Part shown: in pieces, positions 8,907 to 61,548 of the stretch
Numbering within the stretch: the first letter of the stretch is position 1
Layout: every line of letters begins with the position of its first letter
From: a virus
Taxonomy: Duplodnaviria; Heunggongvirae; Uroviricota; Caudoviricetes
Strand: one strand, 5' to 3'
Length of the DNA: 64,000 nt
Virus record (IMG/VR): IMGVR_UViG_3300037346_000580
Coordinates: 1 to 64,000 of that record
Position numbers and translations under genes: made by a program
The notes under the pieces: generated by a model
The model's database searches: none
Told to the model about the DNA's origin: nothing
The model's input: only the letters and a program-made list of their open reading frames with translations

Positions 8907-8940
8907 CAAATATATGAAATAATCCCGAGATAAAAAAATT
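8907..8940 (-). promoter_or_regulatory. Conserved phage promoter motif, instance 1. On the minus strand it reads T7-ATCTCGGGATT-N-TTCATATATTTG-TATTGT.
   Basis: One of about 15 copies of CAAATATA(T)G...TTCGAATAAAAAAA (plus-strand reading) lying upstream of minus-strand genes. Confidence 0.55.
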
Positions 8941-8985
8941 ATTTTACATAAAGTTTCACGATATATAGATAAAATATATTAATTT

Positions 8986-9345
8986 ATGGACAATTATATA
9001 AAACTATATTCAGATTTCATTAATGAAGCTGATAAAAAAGGGGAAAGCTTTGAAGATTTTGCAAAAACCAGATTGACTGGAGCTGCGAAAATAGCCGAAG
9101 CTGCTAAAGAGAAGGGCGGTGATGCTCTTCTAACTTATCACCATTTTAGGGTTAAATTACCGGTTTATGAAAAAGCTGGTGGTGGAAATTTTGATCCTGT
9201 TGAAGCAAAGGATGAGATGGAAGCTCTAGTTAAAGCCTTGGTTAAAGGAACTGCTGGTTCTATAAAACTCGAACAGACTGAATTTCAAAAGCTCGTTGGC
9301 CTCATAGAGGTCTTTGGAGAATTACTAATAAGAAAAGGTGCTTAA
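8986..9345 (+). CDS. Hypothetical protein (119 aa).
   Basis: ORF. A GATATATA box lies about 25 nt upstream, as for the other plus-strand genes. Confidence 0.45.
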   Translation: MDNYIKLYSDFINEADKKGESFEDFAKTRLTGAAKIAEAAKEKGGDALLTYHHFRVKLPVYEKAGGGNFDPVEAKDEMEALVKALVKGTAGSIKLEQTEFQKLVGLIEVFGELLIRKGA

Positions 9346-9647
9346 TTAAGCACCTTTTCTGTTTCATTCAATTTGTTGTAATATTTCATCCTAATTGACT
9401 TGTATCCATGCCCCTGATAGAATATTCTATTTCTAATAACATTCTTTGCATCGTTATTATAATTGTCAATATACCAATCTATATTGATGTTTGATTTGGA
9501 TTTGATTTTCCCATTAACCTCGTTGAATACTCCTTCCCCGATCTCCTCGATTTTAAATATTCCTTTCTCACCCCTAATAAATGCATGCTTAGAAGTTATT
9601 CTTAAGTAGCTAACTACATCTTGTCTGTTTTGTTCTTTTGTTTTCAT
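9342..9647 (-). CDS. Hypothetical protein (101 aa).
   Basis: ORF. Confidence 0.4.
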   Translation of the reverse strand: MKTKEQNRQDVVSYLRITSKHAFIRGEKGIFKIEEIGEGVFNEVNGKIKSKSNINIDWYIDNYNNDAKNVIRNRIFYQGHGYKSIRMKYYNKLNETEKVLN

Positions 9648-9664
9648 GATTTTTTTATTTTTAA

Positions 9665-10288
9665 TTAATTATTTTTTAGTATCCATTGATAGAATCCAGG
9701 TTTTATATTGTTGTCTAATTTTTCCCATAGTCCTGACAGCTGGACGGATTCAGTCATGTATATGTTTGACCCCTGGGATTTACCATTTTCATCAAATATC
9801 TCCCATGTGTAATAGACATGCATACCCCTTTCAGTGTCTACCTTTTTATTCTGAAACCATGTCCATCCTTTTCTTGAATTTTCTATCATCTTCTGTTTTG
9901 CATTCTCAAATAACCGATCATTTATTTCCTTGTTTGAATCGAATGCTTCTCTTGCTTGTTTCAATATTCTTCCCTTTCTCTCGTTTCTTTGTTCATCGTT
10001 ACAATAACAAGCAAGTTCAAATTTAAAAAGTTTCTCAATGTCCTCCCATTTTGAATCTCTTGAATATTTATTTTCCACAAACCCATGGACATCTTCACAA
10101 TAAACATCAACCTTATATCCCTCTGCTGAATAAACATATTCACCTTTATCGTTTATGTAGGCATAAGGTCCATCCCAATAACCTTCTTTTTCTATTGCTG
10201 CTACTGGTATTCCTCCCTCCATTCTGATGTGTCCATTACCCTCAGGATCTGCTTCCCGTAACATCTTTATAAATTCGTTCGTTGTCAT
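9665..10288 (-). CDS. Hypothetical protein (207 aa).
   Basis: ORF. Confidence 0.5.
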   Translation of the reverse strand: MTTNEFIKMLREADPEGNGHIRMEGGIPVAAIEKEGYWDGPYAYINDKGEYVYSAEGYKVDVYCEDVHGFVENKYSRDSKWEDIEKLFKFELACYCNDEQRNERKGRILKQAREAFDSNKEINDRLFENAKQKMIENSRKGWTWFQNKKVDTERGMHVYYTWEIFDENGKSQGSNIYMTESVQLSGLWEKLDNNIKPGFYQWILKNN

Positions 10289-10380
10289 AATTTTTAATTT
10301 ATTTTTATTAATTTATTGTTTGTTTCGCTTCATATAAAGCTCGCTGCTTGATTATTTTTATCCTCTTATACAAATGTATC

Positions 10381-11492: not shown

Positions 11493-11730
11493 AATTTGTT
11501 AATCTAAGTCATTTTCTTAATTTATTTTATTATTATACATTATTTTTTGTTTTTGTTTCATTTTTTATTGGTTATATTCTTCAGGCCTTATACCGTCAGG
11601 GAAAGATAACTTTGCATTTGTTAAATCAATGGAAGAATAAACGTCGGTAATCTCCTTCCTTGTTCTGCTGCTTATATTTAAGCAAACCTCATAAACCCAT
11701 TCATCGAACGCCATATTTAATTTATTTTAG

Positions 11731-11845
11731 TGGTCAGAACAGGATTCGAACCTGTATCTCCAATGTCTTACCAAAGGCGAGTCTACCCGATGCGTAAAGC
11801 AATTCCTCTACCTGACTTAGCTTCTAACAGATTATCAGTTCTGAC
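11731..11845 (-). tRNA. tRNA-like gene A (T-arm ACAGG-TTCGAAT-CCTGT, acceptor 3' strand TTCTGAC). The matching 5' acceptor GTCAGAA lies 115 nt upstream, too far for a canonical tRNA.
   Basis: Reverse complement contains GGTTCGAATCC and an acceptor-stem match. No clean cloverleaf could be built by eye. Confidence 0.4.
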
Positions 11846-11904
11846 GCTTTACACAGCTTAGCTATTTTTGGGTTGCCCCTTACTCTCCGCTATTTGAGTT
11901 TTGT

Positions 11905-11985
11905 GATCCCCACCGGGCTCGAACCGGATACGCTGAGTTTAGAAGTCAGTTTGACGCCATGTCAATTAAGTTTAGGGACCTTTTT
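11905..11985 (-). tRNA. tRNA-like gene B (about 77 nt; 5' GGTCCCT pairs with 3' GGGGATC using two G-U pairs; T-loop TTCGAGC).
   Basis: Acceptor/T-arm complementarity. D and anticodon arms are not convincingly resolved. Confidence 0.4.
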
Positions 11986-12076
11986 CTTTACTTAGTTATT
12001 ATTAAAAATATAACAATGAATATTATTCCTATTATTCCTATTATTGCTTTTCTCATTTTATTTTATTTTTAATTAC

Positions 12077-12119: not shown

Positions 12120-12153
12120 AAAAAAATCGGGATTTTTCAATCCCGATTTCTCT
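12120..12153. terminator. Hairpin terminator (ATCGGGATT-TTTCA-ATCCCGAT) with a flanking A-run.
   Basis: 8-bp inverted repeat. Confidence 0.55.
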
Positions 12154-12977: not shown

Positions 12978-13003
12978 AGAATTAATTGTTAATTGTTAAT
13001 TGT

Positions 13004-14251
13004 TTATTTTTGATCGTCTTCTGTCCATGTAATAACTGGACAATTCTTTTTATACATACTATGTATTAAATCTCTAACCATTCCAAAGAAATCTGCCATA
13101 TAGATAATACCTTGAACCATTGCTCTGAATACTGGTCCTAACCAGCCGAAAATGAATTTAAAAACTTTTTTCATTCCTTTACCAAATTTATAGACAGGTA
13201 TTTTGGGAAGTTTCGGTGGATTAATCTTACTCATTTGCATAAAAGCCCATTTAAAAAATGGATTTATGATATATTTGAATAACGAAAATATTATAAATGC
13301 AGTAGCTATAAATACAGTTATTCCTAAAAGACCATAGCCTACATATTTCCAATTTATCCACCCGATTGTTTTAATCACTGCAACACTCAATCCCCAGATT
13401 GCAAAGTATGATATGATAACTACTAATCCAATACCAATAATTTTAGATGTTTTAGATTGTTTAAATTCCTCTATCTTAACCGCTCTTGCCCCTATAATTT
13501 TTGATTTCTCCTCCGATTTCCTTTCCTTCATCTCTATTTTTAATCTAAGCTTATTATATCTTACCCTGATTGCTTCGTCATCAATATCACGTTTCGCCCG
13601 GTACCATGCCGATCCTTTATCCTCTATCATGTATCTTTCCTTGTAAGGTAATTCATACTGATATTTTTTAAAGATCTTGCTATTCTTCAGATTATATGCC
13701 TCCTTATCTGTTATTGTTGGCAGCTTATCTAGACAATCTTTAACAAAAGATGCTCTCCTTTTTTCGTCCATTCTTTTTGAATATGTCGAGCAGGATTCAA
13801 TAAAGTTGGTGTCTACTTTTCTCGTCATCTTTACAATTAAAATAATAGGAAAGGTAAGAAATACCACTACCATTATCCAGAAATATGGACACATTGTAGG
13901 GTGGACTTTATGAGGTTCTTTACCAAAAACCCATTTATAAACTTTACAATGCCAAGCATCTTTCTTAAAAGTGTAGAAATTCTTTTTTGGTTTCTGTTCC
14001 TCAGTTACCCCTGGGATATACTTATTCTCCAGACTAATATCATACTCAGGAATTCCCAATTGACATTTACAGATTTTATTCTCTCTGTCAATGTCCCATT
14101 TAGTTGAGACGTAAACTGATTCTACATCTGGATTTTCTTTGATCTGGTCTTTGTCCTGAACCATACCAATTATTACAGTTCTTGACTCGTTCAGAATCAT
14201 TTTCTTTAGATCGTATCCAGATTTGGTGGTGTGCAAATTTAAAATCTTCAT
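13004..14251 (-). CDS. Multi-pass membrane protein (415 aa).
   Basis: ORF. Several hydrophobic helices in the central and C-terminal parts. Confidence 0.55.
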   Translation of the reverse strand: MKILNLHTTKSGYDLKKMILNESRTVIIGMVQDKDQIKENPDVESVYVSTKWDIDRENKICKCQLGIPEYDISLENKYIPGVTEEQKPKKNFYTFKKDAWHCKVYKWVFGKEPHKVHPTMCPYFWIMVVVFLTFPIILIVKMTRKVDTNFIESCSTYSKRMDEKRRASFVKDCLDKLPTITDKEAYNLKNSKIFKKYQYELPYKERYMIEDKGSAWYRAKRDIDDEAIRVRYNKLRLKIEMKERKSEEKSKIIGARAVKIEEFKQSKTSKIIGIGLVVIISYFAIWGLSVAVIKTIGWINWKYVGYGLLGITVFIATAFIIFSLFKYIINPFFKWAFMQMSKINPPKLPKIPVYKFGKGMKKVFKFIFGWLGPVFRAMVQGIIYMADFFGMVRDLIHSMYKKNCPVITWTEDDQK

Positions 14252-14323
14252 TTTTGTTTATTTTTTAATTACATGGAAAATATATAAAACATTTTCGATA
14301 TAAAAAAATTATTTTAATATTTT

Positions 14324-14975: not shown

Positions 14976-15542
14976 TTAAACTTTTTCGTCAAAAAATACT
15001 TCAAATTCGTCCCTTGAATAGAAGCCAAAAAGACCAGAACGTAATGTCTCGTTGATTGATGTTATTGACATGGTTCCGCCGAAAGTTCCGCTGTCACCAT
15101 ATCGGTATTTTAATGAAATCCTAGAAAAAGCTCTCTCCCATGATGCTATATCAGTCTTAACCCATGATCCATGTCTATCTACAACCTCATTTGTCTTAAT
15201 GTAATCTCCAAGGTGATGCCAAATGTAGCCTGAAAGTTTAGTAAATTCTTTTCTGCTTACTCTTAATGAAACTTTACGTCTCTTATAGTATGAATCATAT
15301 AATTTTTCTGATTCAGCATCAGATCTATTCTCATCATATTCTACAGGTTTAGGAAATGCACTTGGCTGTGTTTTTTCAATCGAGCTGATAAGGAAAAATT
15401 CTTGTGCTACCTTGGGCATAGCATAAAATCCTCTGGAAGCAGGAGGTGAATGGAACGTTTTTTGCTCCGATGTGTAACCATTCTGTTTCTTGAGATCAAG
15501 ACCACCGAATCTAACAAATATGTTTAGGTTCTTTCCTTTCAT
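14976..15542 (-). CDS. Hypothetical protein (188 aa).
   Basis: ORF. The conserved promoter motif is immediately upstream (15545-15580). Confidence 0.5.
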   Translation of the reverse strand: MKGKNLNIFVRFGGLDLKKQNGYTSEQKTFHSPPASRGFYAMPKVAQEFFLISSIEKTQPSAFPKPVEYDENRSDAESEKLYDSYYKRRKVSLRVSRKEFTKLSGYIWHHLGDYIKTNEVVDRHGSWVKTDIASWERAFSRISLKYRYGDSGTFGGTMSITSINETLRSGLFGFYSRDEFEVFFDEKV

Positions 15543-15544
15543 AT

Positions 15545-15580
15545 TGCAAATATATGAAAAAGAATCGAAATAAAAAAATA
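15545..15580 (-). promoter_or_regulatory. Conserved promoter motif instance (GCAAATATATGAAAAAGAATCGAAATAAAAAAA).
   Basis: Motif family. It lies 3 nt upstream of the ATG at 15542. Confidence 0.55.
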
Positions 15581-16242: not shown

Positions 16243-16851
16243 TTCGTTATGTTTTTGAATGTTATTTAATTATATCAGAAAAATCTGAAAGTTTCCCATT
16301 TTTTTCCAATATATAGAGCAGATAACTCGAATCTCGCGATTTTTTTCCACTAACGACTGAAATTGTGCAAAAAAATTCCACTATGGACACCGATAACCCC
16401 AAAAGAAATGCAAAGAAAAAACATTCAGACTGCTGTTCTGATCCTAGCGACATTCTTCAACCCATTAGGGTTCGACGCTCTTTTTGCATTAGTGATGCAT
16501 TGGACAGGATCTTATTTAATAACAGATGGCATATTTTATTGCCTCTCAGCTTTCTTTTTTGGAATCTATTTTTGGATTTCAGACAAAAAAGTTAGTTTAC
16601 CTAGATTGAAAAGAAAAAGTCAATCCTCAATGGATTGACTTTTCATAATACCTTTTTAAATAACATTTCTAAGCATTCCCTTATATCTGGATCATCAGAC
16701 GATTCGTACAAAACAGATGGGTGCTTACTGTTACATTTCATAAGCACATTATCGACAAACTCATCCCCCCATTTTATTTTTGCCTGATGTATATCCCAGC
16801 CTTTTATAACTATAGCTCCAATCATCTTATTTTTTTATAGATATATATTCC

Positions 16852-17466
16852 ATGATAAACCTAATGAATTTTAAAATGTTTGAATCCTCTGCAGATTCAG
16901 ACTATAGCATGGATGACATTAAAAAACTTCCTGGTTTTATGTTACTTTTAGCAATCGGCTATTATGAAAGCAGCACTAGTGTTATGAAAAATCATATGAC
17001 TATGAGATTATATAACAGCGAACTCAGTATGGAAAAACCTAATGATAATGTCACTGTTTATTCAACGGGTTATGTTAGGAGATTAAGTAAGAGAGGTGGT
17101 CCATGGGGTGATACAGAACCAAGCATTTTTGTGTTGAAAAAATTCTCACCGCTAAACGGTATGCTTACCTGGAACGATCAGTTTTTATATATTTACGAAT
17201 GGACTATTAAGCAATTCAAGAAAAAAGGTATAACCAAATTTAATGATATAGATACTGGGCAATTTATAAATATGAAGAGCATTATAGATTATATGGCTAA
17301 AAAGAATGAAATTGATAAGGCATTGGTATATAAATTATATGAATTGCTAGATGCTAAGGGTAGAAATACTTTCACAAAAAAAATAGGGGTAAATAGAAAA
17401 GATTTTGAGGAAAGAAAAAAGAAATATGATCTTGGTCTGAATATTGTTTCTAAATGGCTAACCTAA
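16852..17466 (+). CDS. Hypothetical protein (204 aa), plus-strand.
   Basis: ORF. Followed by terminator 17468-17496. Confidence 0.5.
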   Translation: MINLMNFKMFESSADSDYSMDDIKKLPGFMLLLAIGYYESSTSVMKNHMTMRLYNSELSMEKPNDNVTVYSTGYVRRLSKRGGPWGDTEPSIFVLKKFSPLNGMLTWNDQFLYIYEWTIKQFKKKGITKFNDIDTGQFINMKSIIDYMAKKNEIDKALVYKLYELLDAKGRNTFTKKIGVNRKDFEERKKKYDLGLNIVSKWLT

Positions 17467-17496: not shown

Positions 17497-17810
17497 ATTG
17501 TCTTCCATTTCAGGTTACTTAAATCATATCTGCAGATAATTATTACTGATGAGCAGCCTAATTTTATATCATCCAATTCGATGGATTCGACTTTTAGATC
17601 CCTCCATTTTTTATTGAATTCCCCCATATCGCTGCCCTCCGTTGATATCATTGGACCCCCTGGTGGATCAAAACTAATAGTTTTTCCATCAAGGCCGATA
17701 CTTTTTCTGCGATATCCTGGAATAAATCCGCTCATCCTAAAATCTAGAAGTCCTAGTCTTTCGAATTTTATCTTGTCTGCATGTCTGTTTATATATATTT
17801 TTTTCTCCAT
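17481..17810 (-). CDS. Hypothetical protein (109 aa).
   Basis: ORF. Confidence 0.4.
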   Translation of the reverse strand: MEKKIYINRHADKIKFERLGLLDFRMSGFIPGYRRKSIGLDGKTISFDPPGGPMISTEGSDMGEFNKKWRDLKVESIELDDIKLGCSSVIIICRYDLSNLKWKTIKNPA

Positions 17811-19024
17811 TAATATCTATAGTTATTACCACCCTTTCCCCTGAACATGTCATTTAGAGGATCGTCATTACCGTCAATATCATTAACAACTGCCCAATAG
17901 CAAATCAATATGGTTATTGCAAGCGTTATGAATAATGTAACCCATTTAGCCCAGGTTGGTGGATCTACCGATATGTAGGAGAATTCGCTAAAGTCTTTTC
18001 TTTTGAATTCTCTATCTACATTATACCAAACTGCATTTGATAACTTTGACGCGTCAAACATCTTATTTGCCATTATATCCTCGCGAACATCTGGAATTAT
18101 TCTTCTAATTGGACTCCAAGTGAATGGTTTAACCCATTGTATCTGTCTAGATTTACTTGATAAACCAACGCATATTACAATTTCGTTATCATTACCTCCG
18201 TCCCAGTAAGCCTCCTGCATATCTGCAGCAACTGATGGCATGTCTTTGAAATATAGGAAATATATTCTTGCGTGTTTCTTTACTCCAAGCTGCCCATTTA
18301 GAAAGGTAGCCCATTGGTTCATGTACCACTTGTCCCTCTTATTTACCCATTTGATGCTATCTAAGCCAAGAACCATTTTCTGGCCATAGCCATCAACATC
18401 GGGATAGTCGAATAGCTTATATTGTTTCTTGTCACTTTCACTTATGATTGGATAATCGAATGCTGTGTGCGCTGCCTGAACCCTATTTTCATAGCTGTTC
18501 GCTGTTGTTGTTGATTCTGCACTTAAAGGTAGAGAATTCCACTTTATTTCATATGCATCCCCATCCTGTCCACATCCACCGTGATATTTTATATCCCTAT
18601 TTAGCTCAATAAATTCTGGTTTGGCCGACCATTTTTTCATTAGTCTATTATACTCAGCCTGTGTGATATTCCAGGTTTGTCCTAAGGAATTCTTAATTTC
18701 CCATTCTGGCCCATTATCGTCACAATATGAGCAATCATAATAAACTGTTCTTCTGCAATTTTTTCCACACGAAACGGTATAGCTACAGGTCCTATGAACC
18801 CAAGTTGTATAGGGCTCATAATATCTTGCTGATACGATTAAAGCCCCGTGATATTCAGTGTCTGTCACCTGTACCTTCTCGACTATGGCCTTAAAGATCG
18901 CTATGAATGATAAACAAGCTAATAGCGGAATTAAAACTTCCCACCAAGTCAATTTCTTTGAGAAAAATTTAAGGAGCACTATGGCGCCTATAATAGGTAT
19001 TAGTAGACATAACCAGATAGACAT
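17810..19024 (-). CDS. Membrane protein with N- and C-terminal TM helices and a large Cys-rich central domain (404 aa).
   Basis: ORF. Hydrophobic termini. Confidence 0.55.
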   Translation of the reverse strand: MSIWLCLLIPIIGAIVLLKFFSKKLTWWEVLIPLLACLSFIAIFKAIVEKVQVTDTEYHGALIVSARYYEPYTTWVHRTCSYTVSCGKNCRRTVYYDCSYCDDNGPEWEIKNSLGQTWNITQAEYNRLMKKWSAKPEFIELNRDIKYHGGCGQDGDAYEIKWNSLPLSAESTTTANSYENRVQAAHTAFDYPIISESDKKQYKLFDYPDVDGYGQKMVLGLDSIKWVNKRDKWYMNQWATFLNGQLGVKKHARIYFLYFKDMPSVAADMQEAYWDGGNDNEIVICVGLSSKSRQIQWVKPFTWSPIRRIIPDVREDIMANKMFDASKLSNAVWYNVDREFKRKDFSEFSYISVDPPTWAKWVTLFITLAITILICYWAVVNDIDGNDDPLNDMFRGKGGNNYRY

Positions 19025-19079: not shown

Positions 19080-19637
19080 TTAAAATACTTTTGTATCGTT
19101 GTCCTTGCCAGTTTTTATGACATCGTCAGTTTTATCTGATGTGATTGGCTTATAGACTAATCTAGTCCTACCCATAAAACTTGAAAGTATAAATCCCGAG
19201 GGAAATTTAGTCATTATATTATCATGTGTCAATACAATATCCATAATCATTTTCTCCTGCATAAAGAAACCGTCCCTCTGCCCCTCTATCGTGCGACTAA
19301 GATCCGCATATAAAGCTGATACCTGATCGAAGTTTGCATTAGGATTTGATTCCTGAACCCATTTCATTACTAATCCTTCAGCATCCTTTCTGTTCGACAT
19401 AATGATGTTAACGTTACGAACGAACGAGCTGTCATTTTTGACTGCGATTTGCGATTTTTGAGAAATAGTTTTCCACATCTTGTCATAGAAAGCCGTACGT
19501 TCATCCATTTTTTGTTTGAATCGATTTCTTAAATCCACCTCTTCGTTACTTGTCGATATAACGCTCGAGAATAATCCAAAGATTACAATAAGTACTAAAC
19601 CAATAATACCAAACTTGATAATTTTACTAGTGTCCAT
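19080..19637 (-). CDS. Membrane-anchored protein, paralogue of 12156..12977 (185 aa).
   Basis: ORF, TM helix, shared motifs. Confidence 0.55.
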   Translation of the reverse strand: MDTSKIIKFGIIGLVLIVIFGLFSSVISTSNEEVDLRNRFKQKMDERTAFYDKMWKTISQKSQIAVKNDSSFVRNVNIIMSNRKDAEGLVMKWVQESNPNANFDQVSALYADLSRTIEGQRDGFFMQEKMIMDIVLTHDNIMTKFPSGFILSSFMGRTRLVYKPITSDKTDDVIKTGKDNDTKVF

Positions 19638-19678
19638 TTTTTTAATTTTAATTTTTAATTGTTATTATTTAATTATAT

Positions 19679-20562: not shown

Positions 20563-21039
20563 TTAGTAAGTTATATCTTTAAACGAATCAAGCACAGCTG
20601 CATTTTCATCCAGGAATTTTCTAAAGTTTCTTTCCATTACTGATTCTCTCCATAATGGGGTTTTTCCATTCTTTGCATTTAATATTATTCTGGGTCCATT
20701 AAGACCTATATTTTTCTTTATGAATGTCTGATCAGCAACTATCGACAATGCCCTGAAGTTACCATCCTGTTTTGCTATTCTATAAGGCTGGAAATCAAGG
20801 TGCGCCATTCTTCCCCCACCAGCTTGTGTTATCTTCTTAATCTTGAATGCATACATTCTTTTTATGCCCTTGACATTAAGCCCTCTAACAAGCAATATTC
20901 CGCCTTCTACCCAGTCTTGCTGGCTAATGGATATATTCTCATTTATGAATGATTTAAAGTTTAGTATGTTTCCCATGATGTATATATTCAAACAAAATAA
21001 AGATATATAATAAAAAAATAAAATCATGTGGAATTTCAT
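20563..21039 (-). CDS. Hypothetical protein (158 aa).
   Basis: ORF. Confidence 0.45.
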   Translation of the reverse strand: MKFHMILFFYYISLFCLNIYIMGNILNFKSFINENISISQQDWVEGGILLVRGLNVKGIKRMYAFKIKKITQAGGGRMAHLDFQPYRIAKQDGNFRALSIVADQTFIKKNIGLNGPRIILNAKNGKTPLWRESVMERNFRKFLDENAAVLDSFKDITY

Positions 21040-26055: not shown

Positions 26056-26086
26056 TTTTTAAGTGTTAATTGTTAATATTATTGAA

Positions 26087-26125
26087 TGCAAATATATGGA
26101 ATCATTTCGAATTAAAAAAATAAAT
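26087..26125 (-). promoter_or_regulatory. Conserved promoter motif instance (TGCAAATATATGGAATCATTTCGAATTAAAAAAA).
   Basis: Motif family. About 30 nt upstream of the ATG at 26055. Confidence 0.55.
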
Positions 26126-27067: not shown

Positions 27068-28078
27068 CTATATATCATCCCCGTGCTCATCTTCATCGTA
27101 ACCATAATATTGCTTCATTTTAGCTATTGATGGTTCCAAAGATTCGTTTATTTTTTTCCAGCCTTCCCAATTGAAGTGCTGAGATCCATATTGGGATCTT
27201 TGCAGTTTAAAGCACATTCCTGACATTGCAGAAGTTAATCTTGCAGTTTCTATTAGCCATTCAAAATCTGATTCCTCTCTTAAACATGATGCAATCAGAA
27301 CCACAGCATATTCACTCTTCATGCTTTTCATTAAATGAATACCTGATCCATACATAGCATCAATAAGTTTCTCTGAGAAATCATTGCTTTCACGATCACC
27401 TTTTCCAACCTCGATGAATTTGACTATGCCTTTTCTTATGGTGTCGGTATACTCTTTTTGCCATGTCGCTTCGTAACTGTCTTTCCTTCCCTCCGCAGAG
27501 AAATCCTGATCAATCAGTGTGTCATAAACAGGAGCATGTATATAGGTAACTGTTAGATCCTTGCATATATCAAGTATAAAACATGGTAGTTTATCATCAA
27601 CCCCCTTAAGTTTCCAATAATTATCTGATTCTCCGTCTTTTCCTTTCAAGCCGTATGTATACCATCGATCGTCGGTTGTTATATCCATCAAGCTAGCGAA
27701 TGGGATTCCACATAAAATTCCCTCCATTAGGTTTACACGCTTCTGAGTTTCCTCATCGTCAGATGGAACAACGTCACCGCAGTCATTATACTTTCCTCTG
27801 ATAGCAGGACCAAATGGAACGTAATCTGACATAGCACCTTCGTTGGAAACCTCCATGCCTTTATGGTCCATTCGATTACCCCAGCTTTTTGTTGTTTGCT
27901 CCCATGCCTCCAGGGCTTTTTCTAATCCTTCCTTTTTTGCTTGTTTAAGAAACGATGAAACCATATATCCGCTTCCTTCTTGTGCGATCCTTCTTGGTAA
28001 CATGAATTGAACTACTAGTTCCTGTCCATCAACTATAGTCTGATTAGTAATTGAACATAAGGTGTAAAAACTTCCCAT
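27068..28078 (-). CDS. Hypothetical protein (336 aa).
   Basis: ORF. Confidence 0.5.
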   Translation of the reverse strand: MGSFYTLCSITNQTIVDGQELVVQFMLPRRIAQEGSGYMVSSFLKQAKKEGLEKALEAWEQTTKSWGNRMDHKGMEVSNEGAMSDYVPFGPAIRGKYNDCGDVVPSDDEETQKRVNLMEGILCGIPFASLMDITTDDRWYTYGLKGKDGESDNYWKLKGVDDKLPCFILDICKDLTVTYIHAPVYDTLIDQDFSAEGRKDSYEATWQKEYTDTIRKGIVKFIEVGKGDRESNDFSEKLIDAMYGSGIHLMKSMKSEYAVVLIASCLREESDFEWLIETARLTSAMSGMCFKLQRSQYGSQHFNWEGWKKINESLEPSIAKMKQYYGYDEDEHGDDI

Positions 28079-28488: not shown

Positions 28489-28925
28489 ATCAATTTTAGT
28501 GCTTCGAGCAAACCTACTTCCATAGCTTCTTCGTATGAATTCATTTTTTCAAAAACATTTTGGCTTTTAAAGAAGAAAATATTATTTTTATTTTCAGGGA
28601 TAAATTCATAAACCTGAGCATAATAATTACCTATGTTACTTATATTCATAGTAATATGGATATTATGAATTTCTCTTAACCATTTTTGAAGTAGTGCTTG
28701 CGATGGTGCTTGTGTTGCATTCCCGCCTGCATCATATGATTCTTGAGCACCACAGCTGCAAATATTAACATCTCTAGCATCACAGTAGCATGAATATATC
28801 TCTACTAATTCATCCTTGGAATCAAAATATTGGATCTGCCTTATATTAAATCCTTTCTTGCTAGCTAGTTTAGCGGTCTCTAATTTTATTGCCTCTTCGT
28901 ACATTTCCATTTCTTTATCCCACAA
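28485..28925 (-). CDS. Member B of the same family (146 aa), in tandem with member A.
   Basis: ETAKLASKKGF ... LLQKWLREIHNIHI ... SYEEAMEVGLLEALKLI. Confidence 0.6.
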   Translation of the reverse strand: MWDKEMEMYEEAIKLETAKLASKKGFNIRQIQYFDSKDELVEIYSCYCDARDVNICSCGAQESYDAGGNATQAPSQALLQKWLREIHNIHITMNISNIGNYYAQVYEFIPENKNNIFFFKSQNVFEKMNSYEEAMEVGLLEALKLI

Positions 28926-28954
28926 ATATATAAAATTCTTTCGAATAAAAAAAA
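28921..28954 (-). promoter_or_regulatory. Conserved promoter motif instance (CACAAATATATAAAATTCTTTCGAATAAAAAAAA), fused to terminator hairpin 28947-28980.
   Basis: Motif family. Confidence 0.5.
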
Positions 28955-29000
28955 TCCTGAATGATATATTCAGGATTTTTGATCTATATTTTCTGGTGCA

Positions 29001-31616: not shown

Positions 31617-31693
31617 GTTTATATTTGTTGATTATAAATTAATTCTCTATCGTTTGGCTGGATTATTGCTTTTTTCATTGTACTTTTAATTAT

Positions 31694-31747
31694 AGGGTAA
31701 ATATAAACAAAAATTCCGAATAAAAAAAATTTATTCGGAATTTTTTA
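31694..31747 (-). promoter_or_regulatory. Conserved promoter motif (variant GTAAATATAAAC) fused to bidirectional hairpin terminator TTCCGAATAAA-A5-TTTATTCGGAA.
   Basis: Motif family plus perfect inverted repeat. Confidence 0.5.
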
Positions 31748-38993: not shown

Positions 38994-39007
38994 ATCATTA
39001 AATTATA

Positions 39008-39060
39008 TGCAAATATAAAAAAAAGATTCGGAATAAAAAAATTTATTCCGAATCTTTTTT
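39008..39060 (-). promoter_or_regulatory. Conserved promoter motif (TGCAAATATAAAAAAAAGATTCGGAATAAAAAAA) fused to hairpin terminator GATTCGGAATAAA/TTTATTCCGAATC.
   Basis: Motif family plus 13-bp inverted repeat. Confidence 0.55.
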
Positions 39061-42712: not shown

Positions 42713-42784
42713 GATCAGTTTGTTAAATTATATTGCAAATGTATGGATTTAATTCGAGATATAAAAATTTATTTGGAATTATTT

Positions 42785-45055: not shown

Positions 45056-45175
45056 TGTTGTAATTTCTTTTTCTACTGCTTTGAAGTTTTGTAAAACCTG
45101 ATCTCTTTTTGTTATTTTGTTATGTTTTTTTAAATTAACAATACAAATATATAAAAAAGTTTCGAATAAAAAAAA

Positions 45176-45484
45176 TTATTTTGATTTATTTTCCAAATTA
45201 GGAAATTCTAGATACTCTTTGATCCCTAATATCTCTTTTATCGCTCTTATCTTTTCACCACTTGGATCTGTTATACTAAGTAGTCCTACACTTGAGCAGA
45301 CGCTTTTTGTTTCTTCGCCCATTCCCCACCCTGATGAAAAAACCTCAGCATCCCTGCCAACAATTTCCTCAAATTTTTCTCTAACAGCCCATCTTAACGG
45401 AAAGTCTGCTCCGTGATGTAATTCACTTCTCTTAACTGGACCTATTACACAGTTCCAATACTCATTTTTTTCTTCACTATCCAT
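45176..45484 (-). CDS. Hypothetical protein (102 aa).
   Basis: ORF. Confidence 0.4.
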   Translation of the reverse strand: MDSEEKNEYWNCVIGPVKRSELHHGADFPLRWAVREKFEEIVGRDAEVFSSGWGMGEETKSVCSSVGLLSITDPSGEKIRAIKEILGIKEYLEFPNLENKSK

Positions 45485-48638: not shown

Positions 48639-48902
48639 ATATTATGTTTAAATTAAAAATCCGAATCATTACACAAATATATGGTAATAATTCGGATTAA
48701 AAAAATAACAATAACAATTATTTTAAAATTGTTTTTTAAATTTTACAGAATAGCTTAGTTCTCCTATCTAAATTGGTTGTTTTATCTTTCGATTTTTCTC
48801 GAGGTGTAGTGCAGCAGCCCACTGCAGTTCTCTCCTTACCTAACTATCACCAATGCGTCTATTCCATAAAATCCTGTTCATTCACCACAAAGAACATATT
48901 TC

Positions 48903-49383: not shown

Positions 49384-49396
49384 TTTTTTAATTTGT

Positions 49397-49457: not shown

Positions 49458-49706
49458 TTAACAATCACCGTTGCATGGTGATTGACATGTTCCCCATACC
49501 TCATAAGAGCATTTCTGTGAATATCCCGTTGGTGAATCCGGGTCAGACCAAGATCCTCCGTTTCTTACGCTACATAAAGGAATTCCCAATGCATTTGCCT
49601 CTATAGAAAGCTTTCGGTATATTCCGAATCTTTGCTTTTTTCTAGCAATCATTCTTCTAAGACCTTCTGCCTTATATTCAGCCTCCTTTGTTTTATCCTT
49701 TGCCAT
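49458..49706 (-). CDS. Small Cys-rich basic protein (82 aa).
   Basis: ORF. Promoter motif upstream (49725-49760). Confidence 0.4.
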   Translation of the reverse strand: MAKDKTKEAEYKAEGLRRMIARKKQRFGIYRKLSIEANALGIPLCSVRNGGSWSDPDSPTGYSQKCSYEVWGTCQSPCNGDC

Positions 49707-49774
49707 GTTCCTTATTAATTACATTGCAAATATATGAAATCCTTTCGAAATAAAAAAATAAAATCATAAAAAAA

Positions 49775-51616: not shown

Positions 51617-52066
51617 TCATACTGTGATCATTTTAAGTGCTTCTGCAAGTCCGAATTCCAATGCCTCCTCGTACGTTCGCCAATCACTATATTCGTCATA
51701 CCATCTATTAGCATTTAGATTGCCTTCGTTATCAAGTTGACGCATAAATCCCCAACTTGTATAATAATTAATATATTTACCATCTGCTGATAGATCATGA
51801 GAGGCATCAACATAAATGTTATGAACTTCTCTTAACCATTTCTGAAGTAATCCTTGTGTAGGAGCTTCAGCTATAAAATGAGTATATTCATCTTCACTAC
51901 ATCTACCTAAAATTCTTGGTAGTTGATGTGGAAATAAGCAATCACCGCCCCTACCCATTTCTAAAGTGTGTTCTTCTGTTTCAAAATAAGCTTCTTCACA
52001 AAGTACATCAAATCTTTTTTCTTTAGCTAATATAGCTGTTTCTAGAGTTATTCTGTTTTCTTTCAT
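51617..52066 (-). CDS. Member C of the ETAKLA/LQKWLRE/YEEALE family (149 aa).
   Basis: LETAILAKEKRF ... APTQGLLQKWLREVHNIYV ... TYEEALEFGLAEALKMI. Confidence 0.6.
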   Translation of the reverse strand: MKENRITLETAILAKEKRFDVLCEEAYFETEEHTLEMGRGGDCLFPHQLPRILGRCSEDEYTHFIAEAPTQGLLQKWLREVHNIYVDASHDLSADGKYINYYTSWGFMRQLDNEGNLNANRWYDEYSDWRTYEEALEFGLAEALKMITV

Positions 52067-53560: not shown

Positions 53561-53806
53561 CTATTCTATTATTACGTTTCCGTTATTATTATCTACTGAT
53601 TGCCATCCGTTATTTGGATCCCTTAGTATAATGTCTCCTCTGGATAGGGATTCTTTGAATGTAATAATATCAGGATCTCCACAGTCGCATCGGTTTGTGT
53701 GTCCACAATAGCAAAGTTTCTCTCCGTCCATGTTGGCTGAGCTTTCTCTGAGATCTAACCATTCTTTATATTTCTTATCCATGTGCAATTTATTATTATA
53801 TTGCAA
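53561..53806 (-). CDS. Small Cys-rich protein (81 aa).
   Basis: ORF. Promoter motif upstream. Confidence 0.4.
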   Translation of the reverse strand: MQYNNKLHMDKKYKEWLDLRESSANMDGEKLCYCGHTNRCDCGDPDIITFKESLSRGDIILRDPNNGWQSVDNNNGNVIIE

Positions 53807-53865
53807 ATATAAGAAAAATATTCGAACAAAAAAAATAACCTTAATGTGAATTAAGGTTATTTTTA
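53801..53865 (-). promoter_or_regulatory. Conserved promoter motif (TTGCAAATATAAGAAAAATATTCGAACAAAAAAAA) fused to hairpin terminator AACCTTAATGTGAATTAAGGTT.
   Basis: Motif family plus inverted repeat. Confidence 0.5.
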
Positions 53866-55533: not shown

Positions 55534-56271
55534 TTAATTTCTGTGTATTACTTCTATATCCTCAACATCAGTATCCCCAATAGGTATTTTAAGTGACGCG
55601 GTGTAACTCATTGAATCTGAGGCATCACCACAGTTAGCATCCTCCCACGTGTAATACTGATTATTATCATTTCCTTCATAGGATATTTCAAAATTACCGT
55701 GTGCTATCTCATTTCCATTCCAAAATACAATTACTAATTTATCATCACTAGTTGTTTTTGACCAATATATGGAATCTATATCAGTATTAAATCTTAATAT
55801 CCCGAATGTTGGTGGCCACCATCCCTTTAACTCATCCGGAATAAAATAGAAACATATTGTTTTTCCTGAATTACATCTGATTAATATACCTCTACCATAT
55901 TCGCCATTTCTATACGATGGTCGTCTAAGATTAATCTTATCCATCAGGTCTAGAGCTTTTTTCTCCTTGTCAGAAACAATCGGACAATATGCTTCAGGTA
56001 AATATCCCTTATCTTTTAATAATTTAAAAAGTTCGTTATAAACCTCATTGTTTGGTTTATGTGTTATATCAGATAATTTGAGATAAGATCCGGTGAAATT
56101 TGTTTTATCCCTACTATATTTTGCATAATGTCCATATTTATCACACTCAACCTGGTCCATTATATTTGGATTTATACTTTCGAAGTATTCATCAACAGTT
56201 TTATACACTTCCGTCTCCGTTGGTGCGATTTTCACATGATCCTCAATAATTGAATATGTTTCGTTTTTCAT
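55534..56271 (-). CDS. Hypothetical protein (245 aa).
   Basis: ORF. Confidence 0.5.
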   Translation of the reverse strand: MKNETYSIIEDHVKIAPTETEVYKTVDEYFESINPNIMDQVECDKYGHYAKYSRDKTNFTGSYLKLSDITHKPNNEVYNELFKLLKDKGYLPEAYCPIVSDKEKKALDLMDKINLRRPSYRNGEYGRGILIRCNSGKTICFYFIPDELKGWWPPTFGILRFNTDIDSIYWSKTTSDDKLVIVFWNGNEIAHGNFEISYEGNDNNQYYTWEDANCGDASDSMSYTASLKIPIGDTDVEDIEVIHRN

Positions 56272-56303
56272 TTATGTACTTTTCTTTCACTATATATCTA
56301 AAC

Positions 56304-56335
56304 AAAAAAAAAGGACCAGTTGCTCTGGTCCTTTT
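56304..56335. terminator. Bidirectional terminator (A9-GGACCAG-TTGCT-CTGGTCC-T4).
   Basis: 7-bp GC-rich stem with an A-run and a T-run. Confidence 0.65.
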
Positions 56336-56352: not shown

Positions 56353-56889
56353 TTAGAATCTATAGTTCACACCAAAGCTAGGCGTATTAAATGGATTAGT
56401 AACTCCACTAAATCCAATTTTTGTTGTACTGTCACCATTCTTAACAGATTTATATGACGCTAAATCAGCTACAGATAAAGTTAAAGATAAGTTTTTAGTA
56501 ACAAAATAATTAGCACCCAATCCTAAATTAGCACTTAGAGTTTTCGTATCGCCTTCTTTATTACTATTTAATCCTAATTGAGAATGTACATTAAAATGCT
56601 CACCGATTCTTAAAAAGTAACATCTAGCGAATGCGCCGAAACCAAAAGAGTCTGTTGTTACACCAGCAGTTTTTGTGCTTTGTGTATTAAGAGAAACACC
56701 AAGAGCAAATTTGTCTGTCACAAAGTGACCAGCTGTTGGATTGAAATCGAATGTTTTTGTATCATCTGAGGATACGAATTTAACAGTACCTTCTACAAAA
56801 GTATCGCCTTTAGAAAATGTTTGAGCAAAGCTCGTTTGCATTGCGATTAAAGCAATTGCGACAAATAAAATTTTTTTCATTTTTTTCAA
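56353..56889 (-). CDS. Outer-membrane beta-barrel protein (OmpA/opacity-like porin family) with a Bacteroidetes-type signal peptide.
   Basis: MKKMKKILFVAIALIAMQTSFAQ signal peptide. Alternating amphipathic strands. C-terminal ...GVNYRF with terminal Phe. Confidence 0.6.
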   Translation of the reverse strand: MKKMKKILFVAIALIAMQTSFAQTFSKGDTFVEGTVKFVSSDDTKTFDFNPTAGHFVTDKFALGVSLNTQSTKTAGVTTDSFGFGAFARCYFLRIGEHFNVHSQLGLNSNKEGDTKTLSANLGLGANYFVTKNLSLTLSVADLASYKSVKNGDSTTKIGFSGVTNPFNTPSFGVNYRF

Positions 56890-56957
56890 ATTTTGATTTT
56901 CCTACTCTGTTAACGGTTTTCGGATTTCACCGTATGTTATATTATATGCTGAATTAA

Positions 56958-59183: not shown

Positions 59184-59456
59184 TTATTTTTTTAGAAATT
59201 CTTCGATCTTCCCAAATTTTGGGCCATCTTCCGGATTTAATATCATTTCGTCAAATGCACCATATCTGCATTGTCTGCCAAAAATATAGCTGATACCATA
59301 CTTAACCCTCTGCCAAAATGCTCTTTTAGTTAGGTGTATACGGATATAAACAGTTGGGTACATTTTATCCTCTATATGATCTTCTGCATAGAATATCATC
59401 ATCATATGATCTGCACTATTACAGTCACAAATTAATAGGTCTTTTTCTTGCGTCAT
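59184..59456 (-). CDS. Hypothetical protein (90 aa).
   Basis: ORF. Confidence 0.4.
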   Translation of the reverse strand: MTQEKDLLICDCNSADHMMMIFYAEDHIEDKMYPTVYIRIHLTKRAFWQRVKYGISYIFGRQCRYGAFDEMILNPEDGPKFGKIEEFLKK

Positions 59457-59466
59457 TTTATAATTT

Positions 59467-60336
59467 TTAAATGTGGCAATCGTAAAGCGATATCACGGTT
59501 TCTTCCGGGAGACTGTCTAATAGATCATTAAATTCTCTGTTCCAATCAGATTGCTCTTTTTCATCAGATGTTATTCCCCACCAACCCATTTCACCTTTCT
59601 CATACCAAACACCATCCTTGATAACTGCGAAGGAAGAGATTGCTGCATCACTGCATTTTTTGCTGTATTCCTCTCTCGTCATTTTGAAATCCTCCAGGTT
59701 TAAGAAAGAATTTTTATATTCATTTTTGGAGTTCCATTCCTTTAATCTGGTTGGTGCTATTTGGGAGTTATAGAAATCTCTGGCCAATTCAATTTCTCCA
59801 GAGAACAGGTTTTGTCTGACGTATGTCCAGTCGTGCATCTCTTTTATCGAATCACCTACTATGGAGATTACCTCGTCATATTTCTCTTCACCTTCCTTAG
59901 CTGCATTGGTTCTCATGGGCCCAAAATCAATGTCACATTTTCTAGCTGAGTCAACATATCCAGCTTCCGGTTCGCTTGAAAATAGACCACGTCTTCCTAC
60001 ATTTCCTTCCGACCCTGCTTTAAGTTTAAAGTGTCCACTCCATCTACCTCCTAATTGGTAATAATCCCATTTTTTATTTGGATTTTCCCAGTACCCATAC
60101 TTTCCTGTTTCCTCATCCTTCTTGTAACCGTGATAATCAGCAGCATAAGCCTCGATGTCATTGTTATATTGACCTCTGGTTTCCTGATCTTCCTCTCCCC
60201 ATTCCTTGTTGATGTAATCGGTTTCGTCACTGAATTCCATATATTCTCCCGGGCAATTTCCCATGTTGTTCTCCTGAAAAGGAGCCAATTGTTTCTCGGC
60301 GTCCTCCCCGAAAACCATAACTGTAAAATGACTCAT
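59467..60336 (-). CDS. Hypothetical protein (289 aa).
   Basis: ORF. Confidence 0.5.
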   Translation of the reverse strand: MSHFTVMVFGEDAEKQLAPFQENNMGNCPGEYMEFSDETDYINKEWGEEDQETRGQYNNDIEAYAADYHGYKKDEETGKYGYWENPNKKWDYYQLGGRWSGHFKLKAGSEGNVGRRGLFSSEPEAGYVDSARKCDIDFGPMRTNAAKEGEEKYDEVISIVGDSIKEMHDWTYVRQNLFSGEIELARDFYNSQIAPTRLKEWNSKNEYKNSFLNLEDFKMTREEYSKKCSDAAISSFAVIKDGVWYEKGEMGWWGITSDEKEQSDWNREFNDLLDSLPEETVISLYDCHI

Positions 60337-60731
60337 TATTTTCTGTATTTAATATCGCCAGAACCAGTTTTAACTGATCCGGTGATTGTTGTTGTTTTTA
60401 CGTCTCCTGATCCAGTTTGAACGTCACCATTTATAATTTCGCATTCAATATCACCAGACCCTGTTTGTGCACCATTATTGATATTAGAACAGTTTATATC
60501 CCCGCTCCCGGTTTTTGCTTTGTTAACATTTCCATTAATCTCGATCTTATCGCAGTAATCAACATCAAGAGATTCTAAGTTTCCTGTGACTGAGATTGTA
60601 ATCGTCTTTGAATCCTTGTGGTCCGATGTTACATCCTTCCCGTCTATAATAATTTTATTCCCACTTATTGTGATAGATCTTCCGACATAATCACTATTGT
60701 TTATTCTTATCATGCTTCCTGTTTTTTCCAT
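60336..60731 (-). CDS. DUF2807 (GIN-domain) like beta-helical repeat protein with repeated TGSGDI motifs.
   Basis: Six copies of (K/Q)TGSGD(I/V) at a regular 12-14 residue spacing. Confidence 0.45.
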   Translation of the reverse strand: MEKTGSMIRINNSDYVGRSITISGNKIIIDGKDVTSDHKDSKTITISVTGNLESLDVDYCDKIEINGNVNKAKTGSGDINCSNINNGAQTGSGDIECEIINGDVQTGSGDVKTTTITGSVKTGSGDIKYRK

Positions 60732-61498
60732 TTTATATTTTGACTCATTTTAAGGCTAAGATTCTCCATTTTTTCCTTTCCCTTATTAAGCTTCTCCTCC
60801 ATCTTATTATACTCGATCATCTGCTTCCCTAGAATTGATGAGTATTTCAAATCGATCTGTTCCTCTGTGAGATACTTATCATCCAATTGAAAAATCTGTG
60901 CTGGTGTAAATTTTCCAGATTTTATTCTTGTTTTTATTCCCTCCTCTATTTCCTCCTCCGTTGGATCAAATAGAATATCCGAATGTGATTCTACATAATC
61001 ACTGCTTGAGGTGTAATCATCATAAATTTTATATGACCACCTTTTTTCCTCCCCAGTTACCAGATTTATATCGATTGTCATATTCAATCCTCTTGCATTT
61101 CCATCTCTCCTCGTAGGTATTATTCGATCCTTCGTAAACACAACAAGTTCCTTACATGTTAGAAATTGGCTCCTGTCTATTAGGAGTCTATCGAGATCGC
61201 TTTTTTTCTTTGAATTAATTAAAAGCTCATTCTTTATATGATTTAGCTCCTTTCTTTTTTCCGAAATCTCCTTATCTAAATCAGAAAGCTTTTGTCTATT
61301 CACCTCGATAGATTTATCATAAATCGGTTGAACGGATTCAAAGATTTCATTGACCACTATTTGAATACCTGAAGGATCCTCATAATTATCACCCTCGTAT
61401 CCTGCGTAATACATATAGGATTCAACCAAGAATCTATTATCACTTATTTTTTCAATAAGCCTTACCTTTTCTCCGTTTTTAAGATAGAAGTCTTTCAT
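60710..61498 (-). CDS. Coiled-coil hypothetical protein (262 aa).
   Basis: ORF. Promoter motif upstream (61513-61548). Confidence 0.5.
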   Translation of the reverse strand: MKDFYLKNGEKVRLIEKISDNRFLVESYMYYAGYEGDNYEDPSGIQIVVNEIFESVQPIYDKSIEVNRQKLSDLDKEISEKRKELNHIKNELLINSKKKSDLDRLLIDRSQFLTCKELVVFTKDRIIPTRRDGNARGLNMTIDINLVTGEEKRWSYKIYDDYTSSSDYVESHSDILFDPTEEEIEEGIKTRIKSGKFTPAQIFQLDDKYLTEEQIDLKYSSILGKQMIEYNKMEEKLNKGKEKMENLSLKMSQNIKWKKQEA

Positions 61499-61512
61499 TG
61501 CTTTATTTTATT

Positions 61513-61548
61513 ATGCAAATATAAATAAAAAAATCGAGATAAAAAAAT
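61513..61548 (-). promoter_or_regulatory. Conserved promoter motif instance (ATGCAAATATAAATAAAAAAATCGAGATAAAAAAA).
   Basis: Motif family. Confidence 0.5.

Follow-up and report, generated by a model that had tools for sequence, protein, structure and literature searches.

A uniform, promoter-like cassette repeated in part of an uncultivated huge phage genome of Bacteroidota

Intergenic cassettes that join a promoter to a terminator are known from T4-type phages, in which the PeSL elements occur in dozens of near-identical copies combining a promoter of host consensus, an A/T-rich upstream region and a stem-loop terminator of variable position (Arbiol et al., 2010, PMC2839356; Comeau et al., 2014, PMC4122927). 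Here we analyze a cassette of similar make-up in a 64,000-nt stretch of viral DNA (IMG/VR record IMGVR_UViG_3300037346_000580, positions 1 to 64,000; hereafter the window), where a 44-nt element is repeated in 15 near-identical intergenic copies. The setting is also similar: small ORFans and accessory genes make up the mosaic region in which the copies are concentrated, at least one of the indels that separate related genomes has a junction within two cassettes, and the window phage shares with the T4-type PeSL phages a gp23-family capsid-like gene. The stem-loop position varies here as well; however, while the promoter-like and A/T-rich part is present in all 15 cassettes, a stable stem-loop accompanies only six of them, which differs from the PeSL composite. 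Moreover, the promoter part is of the Bacteroidota -33/-7 type and not of the sigma-70 -35/-10 type, the hairpins are A/T-rich with T-tails whereas those of PeSL are polyG/polyC, a Shine-Dalgarno part is missing, and the rigid run of seven Ts (T7) and the CG core have no PeSL counterpart.

Two promoter classes of T4 offer further comparisons. The early "uber" promoters are organized as UP/-35/TGn/-10 (Hinton, 2010, PMC2988021), and the cassettes resemble them in matching a host consensus, in having extra conserved positions and in forming a uniform class, which in T4 is very strong and captures the host polymerase. However, the host sigma type is different, and the host G is missing from the cassette element at position -33. 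At T4 middle promoters, which are used with MotA/AsiA, the MotA box lies 12 +/- 1 bp from the -10 element (PMC2988021). The cassettes likewise combine a host-type downstream element with a phage-specific box that replaces the upstream host element at a fixed spacing, but the sequence of the box differs and the spacing is 9 bp instead of 12 bp; the likeness is one of architecture only.

The sigma-A (sigma-ABfr) promoters of Bacteroidota, with -33 TTTG and -7 TAnnTTTG, share with the cassettes the -7 octamer, a distance of 4-5 nt to the start (predicted for the cassettes), A/T-rich tracts around -18 and -28, and A-rich leaders that lack Shine-Dalgarno sequences (PMC6847099). In Flavobacterium johnsoniae, the -7 element reads T-12 A-11 H H T-8 T-7 T-6 G-5, the start follows 4-5 nt from it, A/T-rich tracts stand near -18 and -28, and the -33 motif is scant (Baez et al., 2019, PMC6847099). 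Found in the cassettes only are the invariant A-T7-A (-37 to -29) and the CG (-25/-24). Whitaker and colleagues reportedly presented strong Bacteroides phage-derived promoters as tools in 2017, PBfP1E6 being one such promoter. PBfP1E6 is cited in PMC11554821. In the literature that we searched, neither promoters of huge Bacteroidota phages nor the cassette motif are described. As a kind of element, phage consensus promoters joined to terminator cassettes are well known, while the grammar of A-T7-A, CG and the sigma-ABfr -7 box is new.

The window has a G+C content of 34%, and nearly all of its genes lie on the minus strand. It is syntenic, at about 75-80% nucleotide identity, with IMG/VR contigs of 434,509 bp, 430,120 bp and 79.9 kb (C434, C430 and C80), and is part of an uncultivated huge phage of about 430 kb with a Bacteroidota host. 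The two larger contigs are IMGVR_UViG_3300032236_001850 and 3300034116_002156, respectively. The host assignment follows from the lack of enrichment of sigma-70 sites, the rarity of Shine-Dalgarno-like cores, the A-rich leaders and the nearest cultured homologues. Sigma-70 -35/-10 promoters were rejected as a candidate, as their matches in the window are at or below shuffle expectation. A Shine-Dalgarno-like core is found at only 6 of 117 window open reading frames (ORFs), and the nearest cultured homologues of a phage-specific protein (17810-19024) are in the Tenacibaculum jumbo phages PTm1, PTm5 and pT24 (32-34%) and the Prevotella Lak megaphages (29%). No match was obtained when 20 kb of the window was searched at near-identity against cultured and deposited phages.

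A 44-nt cassette of fixed geometry

Ungapped alignment of the 15 copies on the octamer TATATTTG gives the 44-nt consensus A-T7-A-T-(T/C)-T-C-G-A-A-N4-TTT(C/T)A-TATATTTG-C-A-n-T-R-T-A-A-T. Each copy is named here by the plus-strand coordinate of the first T of TATATTTG as read on the minus strand (Table 1). All copies lie on the minus strand, are intergenic and are co-oriented with the next ORF; by simple ORF tiling, intergenic DNA makes up about 4.5 kb (7%) of the window. An earlier sequence-only reading had listed about 15 recurring copies, and exactly 15 are present, one at each listed site. In a 44-column position weight matrix (PWM) they score 39.6-55 bits, compared with 8.1 bits for the next best window site (both strands, 128 kb) and a maximum of 11.2 bits in 100 first-order Markov shuffles, and even when scored with themselves left out of the matrix they reach 25.3-51.8 bits. 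The recurrence of the motif is thus beyond chance. The top three direct-repeat families of an independent repeat finder, run on 5400-64000, jointly hold all 15 copies. An identical Logan contig (SRR12911269_8876) reaches 3.3 kb past the right window end and carries two further, somewhat diverged copies there.

Positions within the cassette are numbered according to Baez et al. (2019, PMC6847099). This places the T7 run at -36 to -30, a YCGR box at -27 to -22 and TTTYA at -17 to -13, and the A/T-rich stretch extends to about -54. The upstream A, the seven Ts and the two Ts before the octamer are invariant or nearly so, and the C and G of the box are kept in 13/15 and 14/15 copies, respectively. 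Within the octamer, TA and TTT are present in all 15 copies and the final G in 13; the -7 element TAnnTTTG (TAHHTTTG) is exact in these 13 (12 with TATATTTG, one with TACATTTG), while the other two differ solely at the final G. The earlier identification of the core as the Bacteroidetes sigma-A -7 element is thus upheld. The remark that TTCGAA is not the -33 TTTG at canonical spacing was also right, given the position of the box, but the invariant T7 run occupying the -33 position had been overlooked. Conservation does not end at TATATTTG but goes on 3' as C-A-n-T-R-T-A-A-T, where the T-A-A at 6-8 bases 3' is near-invariant and a purine stands at the predicted +1 in 13/15 copies.

The spacing between the T run and TATATTTG is fixed, with the same register in every copy, and does not range over 8-12 nt between box and core as had been claimed. 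A conserved box does exist, but its conserved part is the YCGR core, since TTCGAA is exact in only 5/15 copies and TCGA in 9/15. TTCGAA as a restriction- or methylation-type site was considered and rejected, because it is neither enriched nor avoided in the window (20 seen, 20.4 expected; TCGA 153 seen, 169 expected) and most cassettes lack the exact form. Also rejected was the TATAAT-like TRTAAT 3' of the -7 box as a separate -10 element, which stands too close for a sensible -35 and fits the start-site region.

The exact pattern TTTTTTTATNTCGA-N10-TATATTTG is found in 24 IMG/VR stretches, eight in the 434,509-bp contig and three in the 430,120-bp contig, all on one strand. When the relatives were assembled as composites of 57-71 kb, whose overlapping pieces showed no sequence conflict, the PWM detected 18 (C434), 15 (C430) and 13 (C80) copies in the syntenic composites, all on the gene strand. 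Thirteen window copies have orthologous counterparts that hold the same position with respect to the gene downstream. Identity to the window at these orthologous sites is 0.99 for the T run, 1.00 for the C and G, 0.97 for the octamer and 0.97-1.00 for the two predicted start positions, compared with 0.66-0.80 for the flanks, coding sequence included. Since the defining columns are far better kept than their flanks, purifying selection acts on exactly those columns.

Cassettes also precede tRNA genes. The tRNA arrays of the relatives hold 18-20 tRNAs in 14 kb, with cassettes 33-35 nt before the first tRNA base (e.g., L009 2809 before tRNA-Arg at 2844, and L016 667 before a tRNA at 700), and two of the window copies stand before a small ORF behind which a tRNA or tRNA-like gene lies. 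This placement identifies the cassette as a transcription signal and not a translation signal. Within the window, five tRNA 3'-end-like sequences (GGTTCGA.CC...CCACAAAAT) occur at 11725-11990 and 48903-49452 on the minus strand. Only two stretches reach a tRNA score: the one behind copy 2 (28.9 bits; an 88-nt tRNA with anticodon atc according to ARAGORN) and the one behind copy 13 (40.9 bits, only 57 nt). The tRNA-like sequences of the window may be degenerate, intron-containing or truncated tRNAs.

The genes behind the cassettes are mostly ORFans and accessory metabolism or RNA-repair genes, a content like that of T4 hyperplastic regions, and nine of the ten first genes that were scanned have no Pfam match. 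In 12 copies, 4-43 nt separate the G of TTTG from the ATG, where 15-35 nt had been given. The remaining three differ: copy 12088 lies 24 nt before an ORF of 22 amino acids (aa), copy 31705 lies 18 nt before a 19-aa ORF and 81 nt before a 130-aa gene, and the start codon behind copy 45151 is uncertain. The two tiny ORFs begin alike (MRKAIIGIIGIIFIVIFLIITK and MKKAIIQPNDRELIYNQQI, both on the minus strand) and could encode small membrane peptides or act as upstream ORFs. The ATG of gene 14976-15542 falls exactly on the predicted transcription start (TATATTTGCAATATG), and a leaderless mRNA is therefore predicted; PTm1 (L054, 1087) is arranged alike (TATATTTGCAGTATG). Directly before four start codons (8867-8900, 12984-13017, 19636-19669 and 26054-26087) stands a repeated leader that reads (TTAACAA)n or AACAATTAACAATTAAC on the minus strand. 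Three of the four leaders are located behind cassette copies, and this A-rich repeat may serve to enhance translation.

A convincing upstream hairpin is found at six of the 15 copies, while the other nine have no stable hairpin; the terminator is therefore an optional add-on and not the identity of the repeat. The hairpins at 12088 and 26096 are separate and lie upstream, those at 28930 and 53811 share their T-tail with the cassette T run, and only 31705 and 39017 form perfect bidirectional palindromes, with the T run as the loop and the box as the 3' arm. By the criteria of the terminator search, intrinsic terminators, defined as a G+C-containing hairpin followed by a T run, accompany five copies, and one further copy has an A/T-rich hairpin. 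Some copies are thus fused to terminators as the sequence-only reading had it, but perfect palindromes are confined to two, and the idea of a single reused cassette punctuating all transcription units was overstated.

One clean cassette-by-cassette recombination junction is present. Copy L024:3884 of the 430-kb contig is chimeric, with the upstream flank of copy 45151 joined to the downstream flank and gene of copy 42743, and it matches 42743 from the A-rich segment just before the T run onward. The 2.4-kb, four-gene module between these two window copies is missing at L024:3884, and the 79.9-kb contig has the same junction topology. The region is highly mosaic, with 20-27 indels of at least 250 nt per pairwise comparison of relatives, several of which start 16-45 nt from a copy (e.g., 28914, 31663, 14326, 19731 and 49762). 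With more than 40 nt in common, the copies can act as recombination points at which gene modules are added or deleted. Many other insertions in the relatives are free-standing homing-endonuclease-like genes (GIY-YIG with NUMOD3, SegE-like GIY-YIG, LAGLIDADG-like, and a TnsA-like nuclease).

Recognition of the cassette

The cassettes are probably strong, uniform phage promoters that a host-type sigma-A holoenzyme reads via the -7 box, supplemented with lineage-specific upstream elements. On this reading they would be the counterpart, in the promoter grammar of Bacteroidota, of both the T4 early "uber" promoters and the PeSL cassettes. RNA polymerase (RNAP) with host sigma-A would bind the octamer TATATTTG as a -7 element (T-12 A-11 .. 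T-8 T-7 T-6 G-5) and start transcription 4-5 nt downstream, at the conserved purine in T-R-T-A-A-T. The A/T-rich stretch, A-T7-A at the weak host -33 position, C-G and TTTYA might make these sites unusually strong and uniform "uber-promoters", with which the phage would capture the polymerase and have it transcribe short units that contain accessory genes and tRNAs. The 15 elements would then be the principal promoters of the window's part of the genome, and the terminator upstream of six of them would insulate the unit from read-through before transcription is restarted. Promoter activity, the start site and recognition by the unmodified host holoenzyme are what we infer from sequence features.

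The division of the cassette into a host-type core and a phage-lineage-specific upstream part follows from PTm1, which shares the core only, and from the near-absence of the exact pattern in bacterial genomes. Intergenic regions of this Tenacibaculum phage combine a hairpin and a T-rich stretch with TATATTTG(C/T)A, and the A-T7-A...YCGR part is missing from them. When 185,579 bacterial and archaeal genomes (596 Gb) were scanned, the exact pattern was found in 14 stretches only. Eleven of these are single matches, over half in Bacteroidota metagenome-assembled genomes (MAGs). The rest come from three contigs of a single 'uncultured bacterium' bin (SRR6231146_bin.88; GenBank CALAYS01) that are 85-88% identical to the window, which indicates that this MAG is partly mis-binned huge-phage DNA. 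The three contigs (L040, L042 and L050) belong to a GTDB species-representative MAG. A general host promoter architecture was rejected as an explanation on the basis of these few, mostly single matches. The proposal of a phage-specific class stands, as the cassette is kept in related huge-phage contigs and its sole multi-match bacterial case is a mis-binned phage relative.

Several points weigh against the main reading proposed here. The -33 TTTG, about 19 nt 5' of the -7 box, is absent, with TTTT in 15/15 copies. Since the -33 G is missing and the CG at -25/-24 has no known host-promoter counterpart, a phage-encoded factor could be needed. The T-run and CG sub-elements also appear to evolve independently of the constant -7 box: L036 and L037 (~72% protein identity) have ATTTYCAWGTATCGRG-N8-TTATATTTGTCTTATAAAT, with TCGR in the same register and no T7, while seven copies in 15 kb of L018, a 154-kb contig, keep A-T7-A and the -7 box without CG. 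Such independent variation is what co-evolution with phage proteins might give. Our survey of sigma and activator genes covered the window, i.e., about 15% of the genome, and early timing is suggested by gene content and the T4 analogy only. In addition, enrichment of indel boundaries at cassettes is not clear (about 21% of 71 gaps, compared with about 15% of gene junctions), and we therefore keep the claim of PeSL-style shuffling modest.

The main alternative, which is unlikely, is reading by host sigma-A together with a phage activator. Here the sigma factor would recognize the -7 box while the activator would bind A-T7-A and YCGR and replace the -33 contact, as at middle-type promoters. A lineage-specific box at a rigid 9-bp distance to the -7 box, with no host -33 TTTG there, is what such an arrangement would look like, and it agrees with the 100% conservation of CG at orthologous sites, the variation of the box among phage clades with a constant -7 box, and the essential absence of the exact motif from bacterial genomes. 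Furthermore, T4 tRNA and nucleotide-metabolism genes are typically middle genes (PMC2988021). However, Pfam and PHROG scans of about 60 window ORFs of at least 140 aa gave no match to activators or to AsiA-like or MotA-like proteins, and no other abundant host-like class fit for an early role is seen in the window intergenic regions. Host polymerase may also suffice, since the Flavobacterium -33 element is weak and A/T-rich tracts near -18/-28 are normal host features. The same scans revealed no sigma, RNAP, RNAP-modifier or anti-sigma domain, so that the phage sigma factor or RNAP-modifying protein which the sequence-only reading suggested looking for was not found in the window. This lowers the probability of a phage-encoded sigma (a sigma-A-like paralogue) or phage RNAP, with the -7 likeness due to shared sigma ancestry, which we regard as improbable. 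The information content of the motif is far beyond what a host promoter needs, and some huge phages encode sigma-70 family and AsiA-like proteins (Al-Shayeb et al., 2020, PMC7162821), but the octamer is the exact host-phylum consensus in 13/15 copies and the TATATTTG core serves the cultured Tenacibaculum jumbo phage in the absence of the additional upstream part. Some promoters must also act before phage proteins exist, and the cassette is the only abundant class seen.

That the cassettes are not primarily promoters, but recombination or mobility sites (PeSL-type mini-circle junctions or recombinase targets) or plain terminators, is very improbable. The clean junction between two cassettes, the indels beginning 16-45 nt from copies and the six terminator hairpins could be taken in this sense. 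However, the nine copies without a stable hairpin keep every conserved base, the strongest conservation falls on the -7 octamer and the predicted start instead of on a symmetric recombinase-type core, the orientation is always that of the downstream gene or tRNA, and indel boundaries are not over-represented at cassettes.

If the cassettes are promoters, they would be useful landmarks. Huge Bacteroidota phages are known from metagenomes only, and their gene regulation is uncharted. A 44-nt signal of 25-52 bits that marks transcription-unit starts with almost no false positives would make it possible to divide 430-kb genomes into units and temporal classes from their sequence only, and the cassettes are candidate very strong and compact promoter/insulator parts for engineering Flavobacteriia and Bacteroidia. 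They would also extend the T4 idea of a promoter-terminator cassette as a recombination module to another host phylum and promoter grammar. For a polymerase with poorly understood upstream recognition, it is a sharp question by what the T7 run and the CG core are read, and the cassette becomes surprising only if its upstream part is read by a phage factor. Should a phage factor read A-T7-A and CG, this would be a Bacteroidota counterpart of T4 sigma appropriation, and together with the motif GATATATA described below it would give the first huge-phage lineage with a decipherable multi-stage transcription programme on the sigma-ABfr polymerase.

A second motif and neighbouring genes

Plus-strand genes are preceded by GATATATA and never by the main cassette. 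The window holds eight copies of this motif against 6.2 expected, and the count alone is uninformative. However, six of the eight stand 4-19 nt before an ATG that opens an ORF of 40 aa or more, and in three relatives the same holds for 23/25 copies at distances of 4-22 nt. A single window copy, at 21480, is intragenic, and the base after the motif is G, A or T. A plus-strand motif had been described about 25 nt upstream of genes; it is indeed found at 6869, 8960, 16840 and 21002, but 4-18 nt before the ATG. Nor is it a plus-strand trait, as it also precedes minus-strand genes at 27076, 56298 and 3548.

GATATATA is the sole signal before the plus-strand genes, a giant collagen-like ORF and homing-endonuclease inserts. 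The homing-endonuclease-like inserts of the relatives (C434 51812 and 86640; C80 28046, 49087, 68997 and 78935) each have their own GATATATA. The T4 late promoter is TATAAATA, and T4 late genes lie on the opposite strand. GATATATA is a genuine second signal and, by this analogy, plausibly marks a distinct, late-like promoter class; the late-like reading is further suggested by what lies behind the motif, namely homing-endonuclease genes and a collagen-repeat protein that looks structural.

Table 1. Cassette copies and GATATATA motifs in the window. Site is the coordinate by which a cassette copy is named in the text.
Feature	Positions	Strand	Site	Context
Copy 1 (AATTTTTTTATCTCGGGATTATTTCATATATTTGTATTGTAATT)	8897..8940	-	8914	Precedes gene 8156-8866; divergent from GATATATA at 8960
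Copy 2, degenerate box TTTAAAAA	12071..12114	-	12088	Separate terminator hairpin 12120-12153 just upstream; downstream 22-aa hydrophobic ORF 11988-12056 and tRNA-like gene 11731-11817 (both -)
Copy 3, -7 box TATATTTT	14267..14310	-	14284	Precedes gene 13004-14251
Copy 4	15537..15580	-	15554	ATG of gene 14976-15542 on predicted start site
Copy 5, box ATTGAA	19671..19714	-	19688	Degenerate inverted repeat upstream; precedes gene 19080-19637
Copy 6	26079..26122	-	26096	Separate terminator hairpin 26132-26159 upstream; precedes SPFH-domain gene 24127-26055
Copy 7	28913..28956	-	28930	Own T run is T-tail of terminator hairpin 28950-28980; precedes gene 28485-28910
Copy 8, -7 box TATATTTA	31688..31731	-	31705	Perfect palindrome 31709-31745, T run as loop, box as 3' arm; downstream 19-aa ORF 31619-31678, then gene 31224-31616 (both -)
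Copy 9	39000..39043	-	39017	Perfect 19-bp bidirectional palindrome 39019-39060 takes in box; precedes gene 38247-38993
Copy 10 (TACATTTG)	42726..42769	-	42743	Precedes gene 42281-42712; one recombination-junction partner
Copy 11	45134..45177	-	45151	Precedes ORF 44660-45055, start codon uncertain; other junction partner
Copy 12	48664..48707	-	48681	Precedes 73-aa ORF starting 48638
Copy 13, best consensus match	49717..49760	-	49734	Precedes 82-aa ORF 49458-49706, then tRNA 49396-49452
Copy 14	53794..53837	-	53811	Own T run is T-tail of A/T-rich hairpin 53831-53864; precedes 73-aa ORF starting 53782
Copy 15	61506..61549	-	61523	Precedes gene 60710-61498
GATATATA	6869..6876	+		16 nt before ATG of gene 6893-7423
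GATATATA	8960..8967	+		18 nt before ATG of gene 8986-9345
GATATATA	16840..16847	+		4 nt before ATG of gene 16852-17466
GATATATA	21002..21009	+		16 nt before ATG of gene 21026-21292
GATATATA(G)	27069..27076	-		18 nt before ATG of gene 26304-27050 (M28-peptidase-like); overlaps stop codon of upstream gene
GATATATA(G)	56291..56298	-		19 nt before ATG of gene 55534-56271; just after terminator hairpin 56309-56335
GATATATA(G)	3541..3548	-		Just upstream of giant collagen-like ORF, probable start TTG

According to the Pfam and PHROG scans, the window encodes NAMPT, PRPP synthetase, RNA ligase, Thg1, SmpB, a CCA/poly(A)-polymerase-head protein, an M42 peptidase, NADAR, a nucleoside deoxyribosyltransferase-like protein and a gp23-family capsid-like protein, besides many ORFans. 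For the capsid-like protein (296 aa, 22610-23500, minus strand), the match to the T4 Gp23 major-capsid family (Pfam E = 1e-14; phrog_138) covers the C-terminal two thirds of that family, and the gene sits among accessory metabolic genes and not in a structural module.

The collagen-like ORF (1-3520, minus strand) has more than 1,170 codons and runs off the left window end. It consists almost entirely of G-T/S-S collagen-like (G-X-Y) triplets, and its 9-nt DNA period swamps repeat finders. Host DNA or a prophage border was considered for the left end (43-46% G+C) and rejected, as the high G+C is explained by this repeat ORF of the phage. Next to it, also on the minus strand and within the phage genome, lies an IS607-like pair of a serine-recombinase TnpA (Resolvase domain, 4753-5325) and a TnpB-like transposase (3588-4760, phrog_506).

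Four paralogous genes of about 140 aa (28078-28488, 28485-28925, 51617-52066 and 62027-62452) share DNA segments that are 60-80% identical. Two tandem members of this family stand directly behind cassette 28930 and are missing from the 434-kb relative. Lastly, an Rfam DUF805b RNA motif at 56899-56933 (minus strand; 36.5 bits, gathering threshold 35.6) is located in the intergenic leader of an outer-membrane-protein (OMP) beta-barrel-like gene, 56353-56889.

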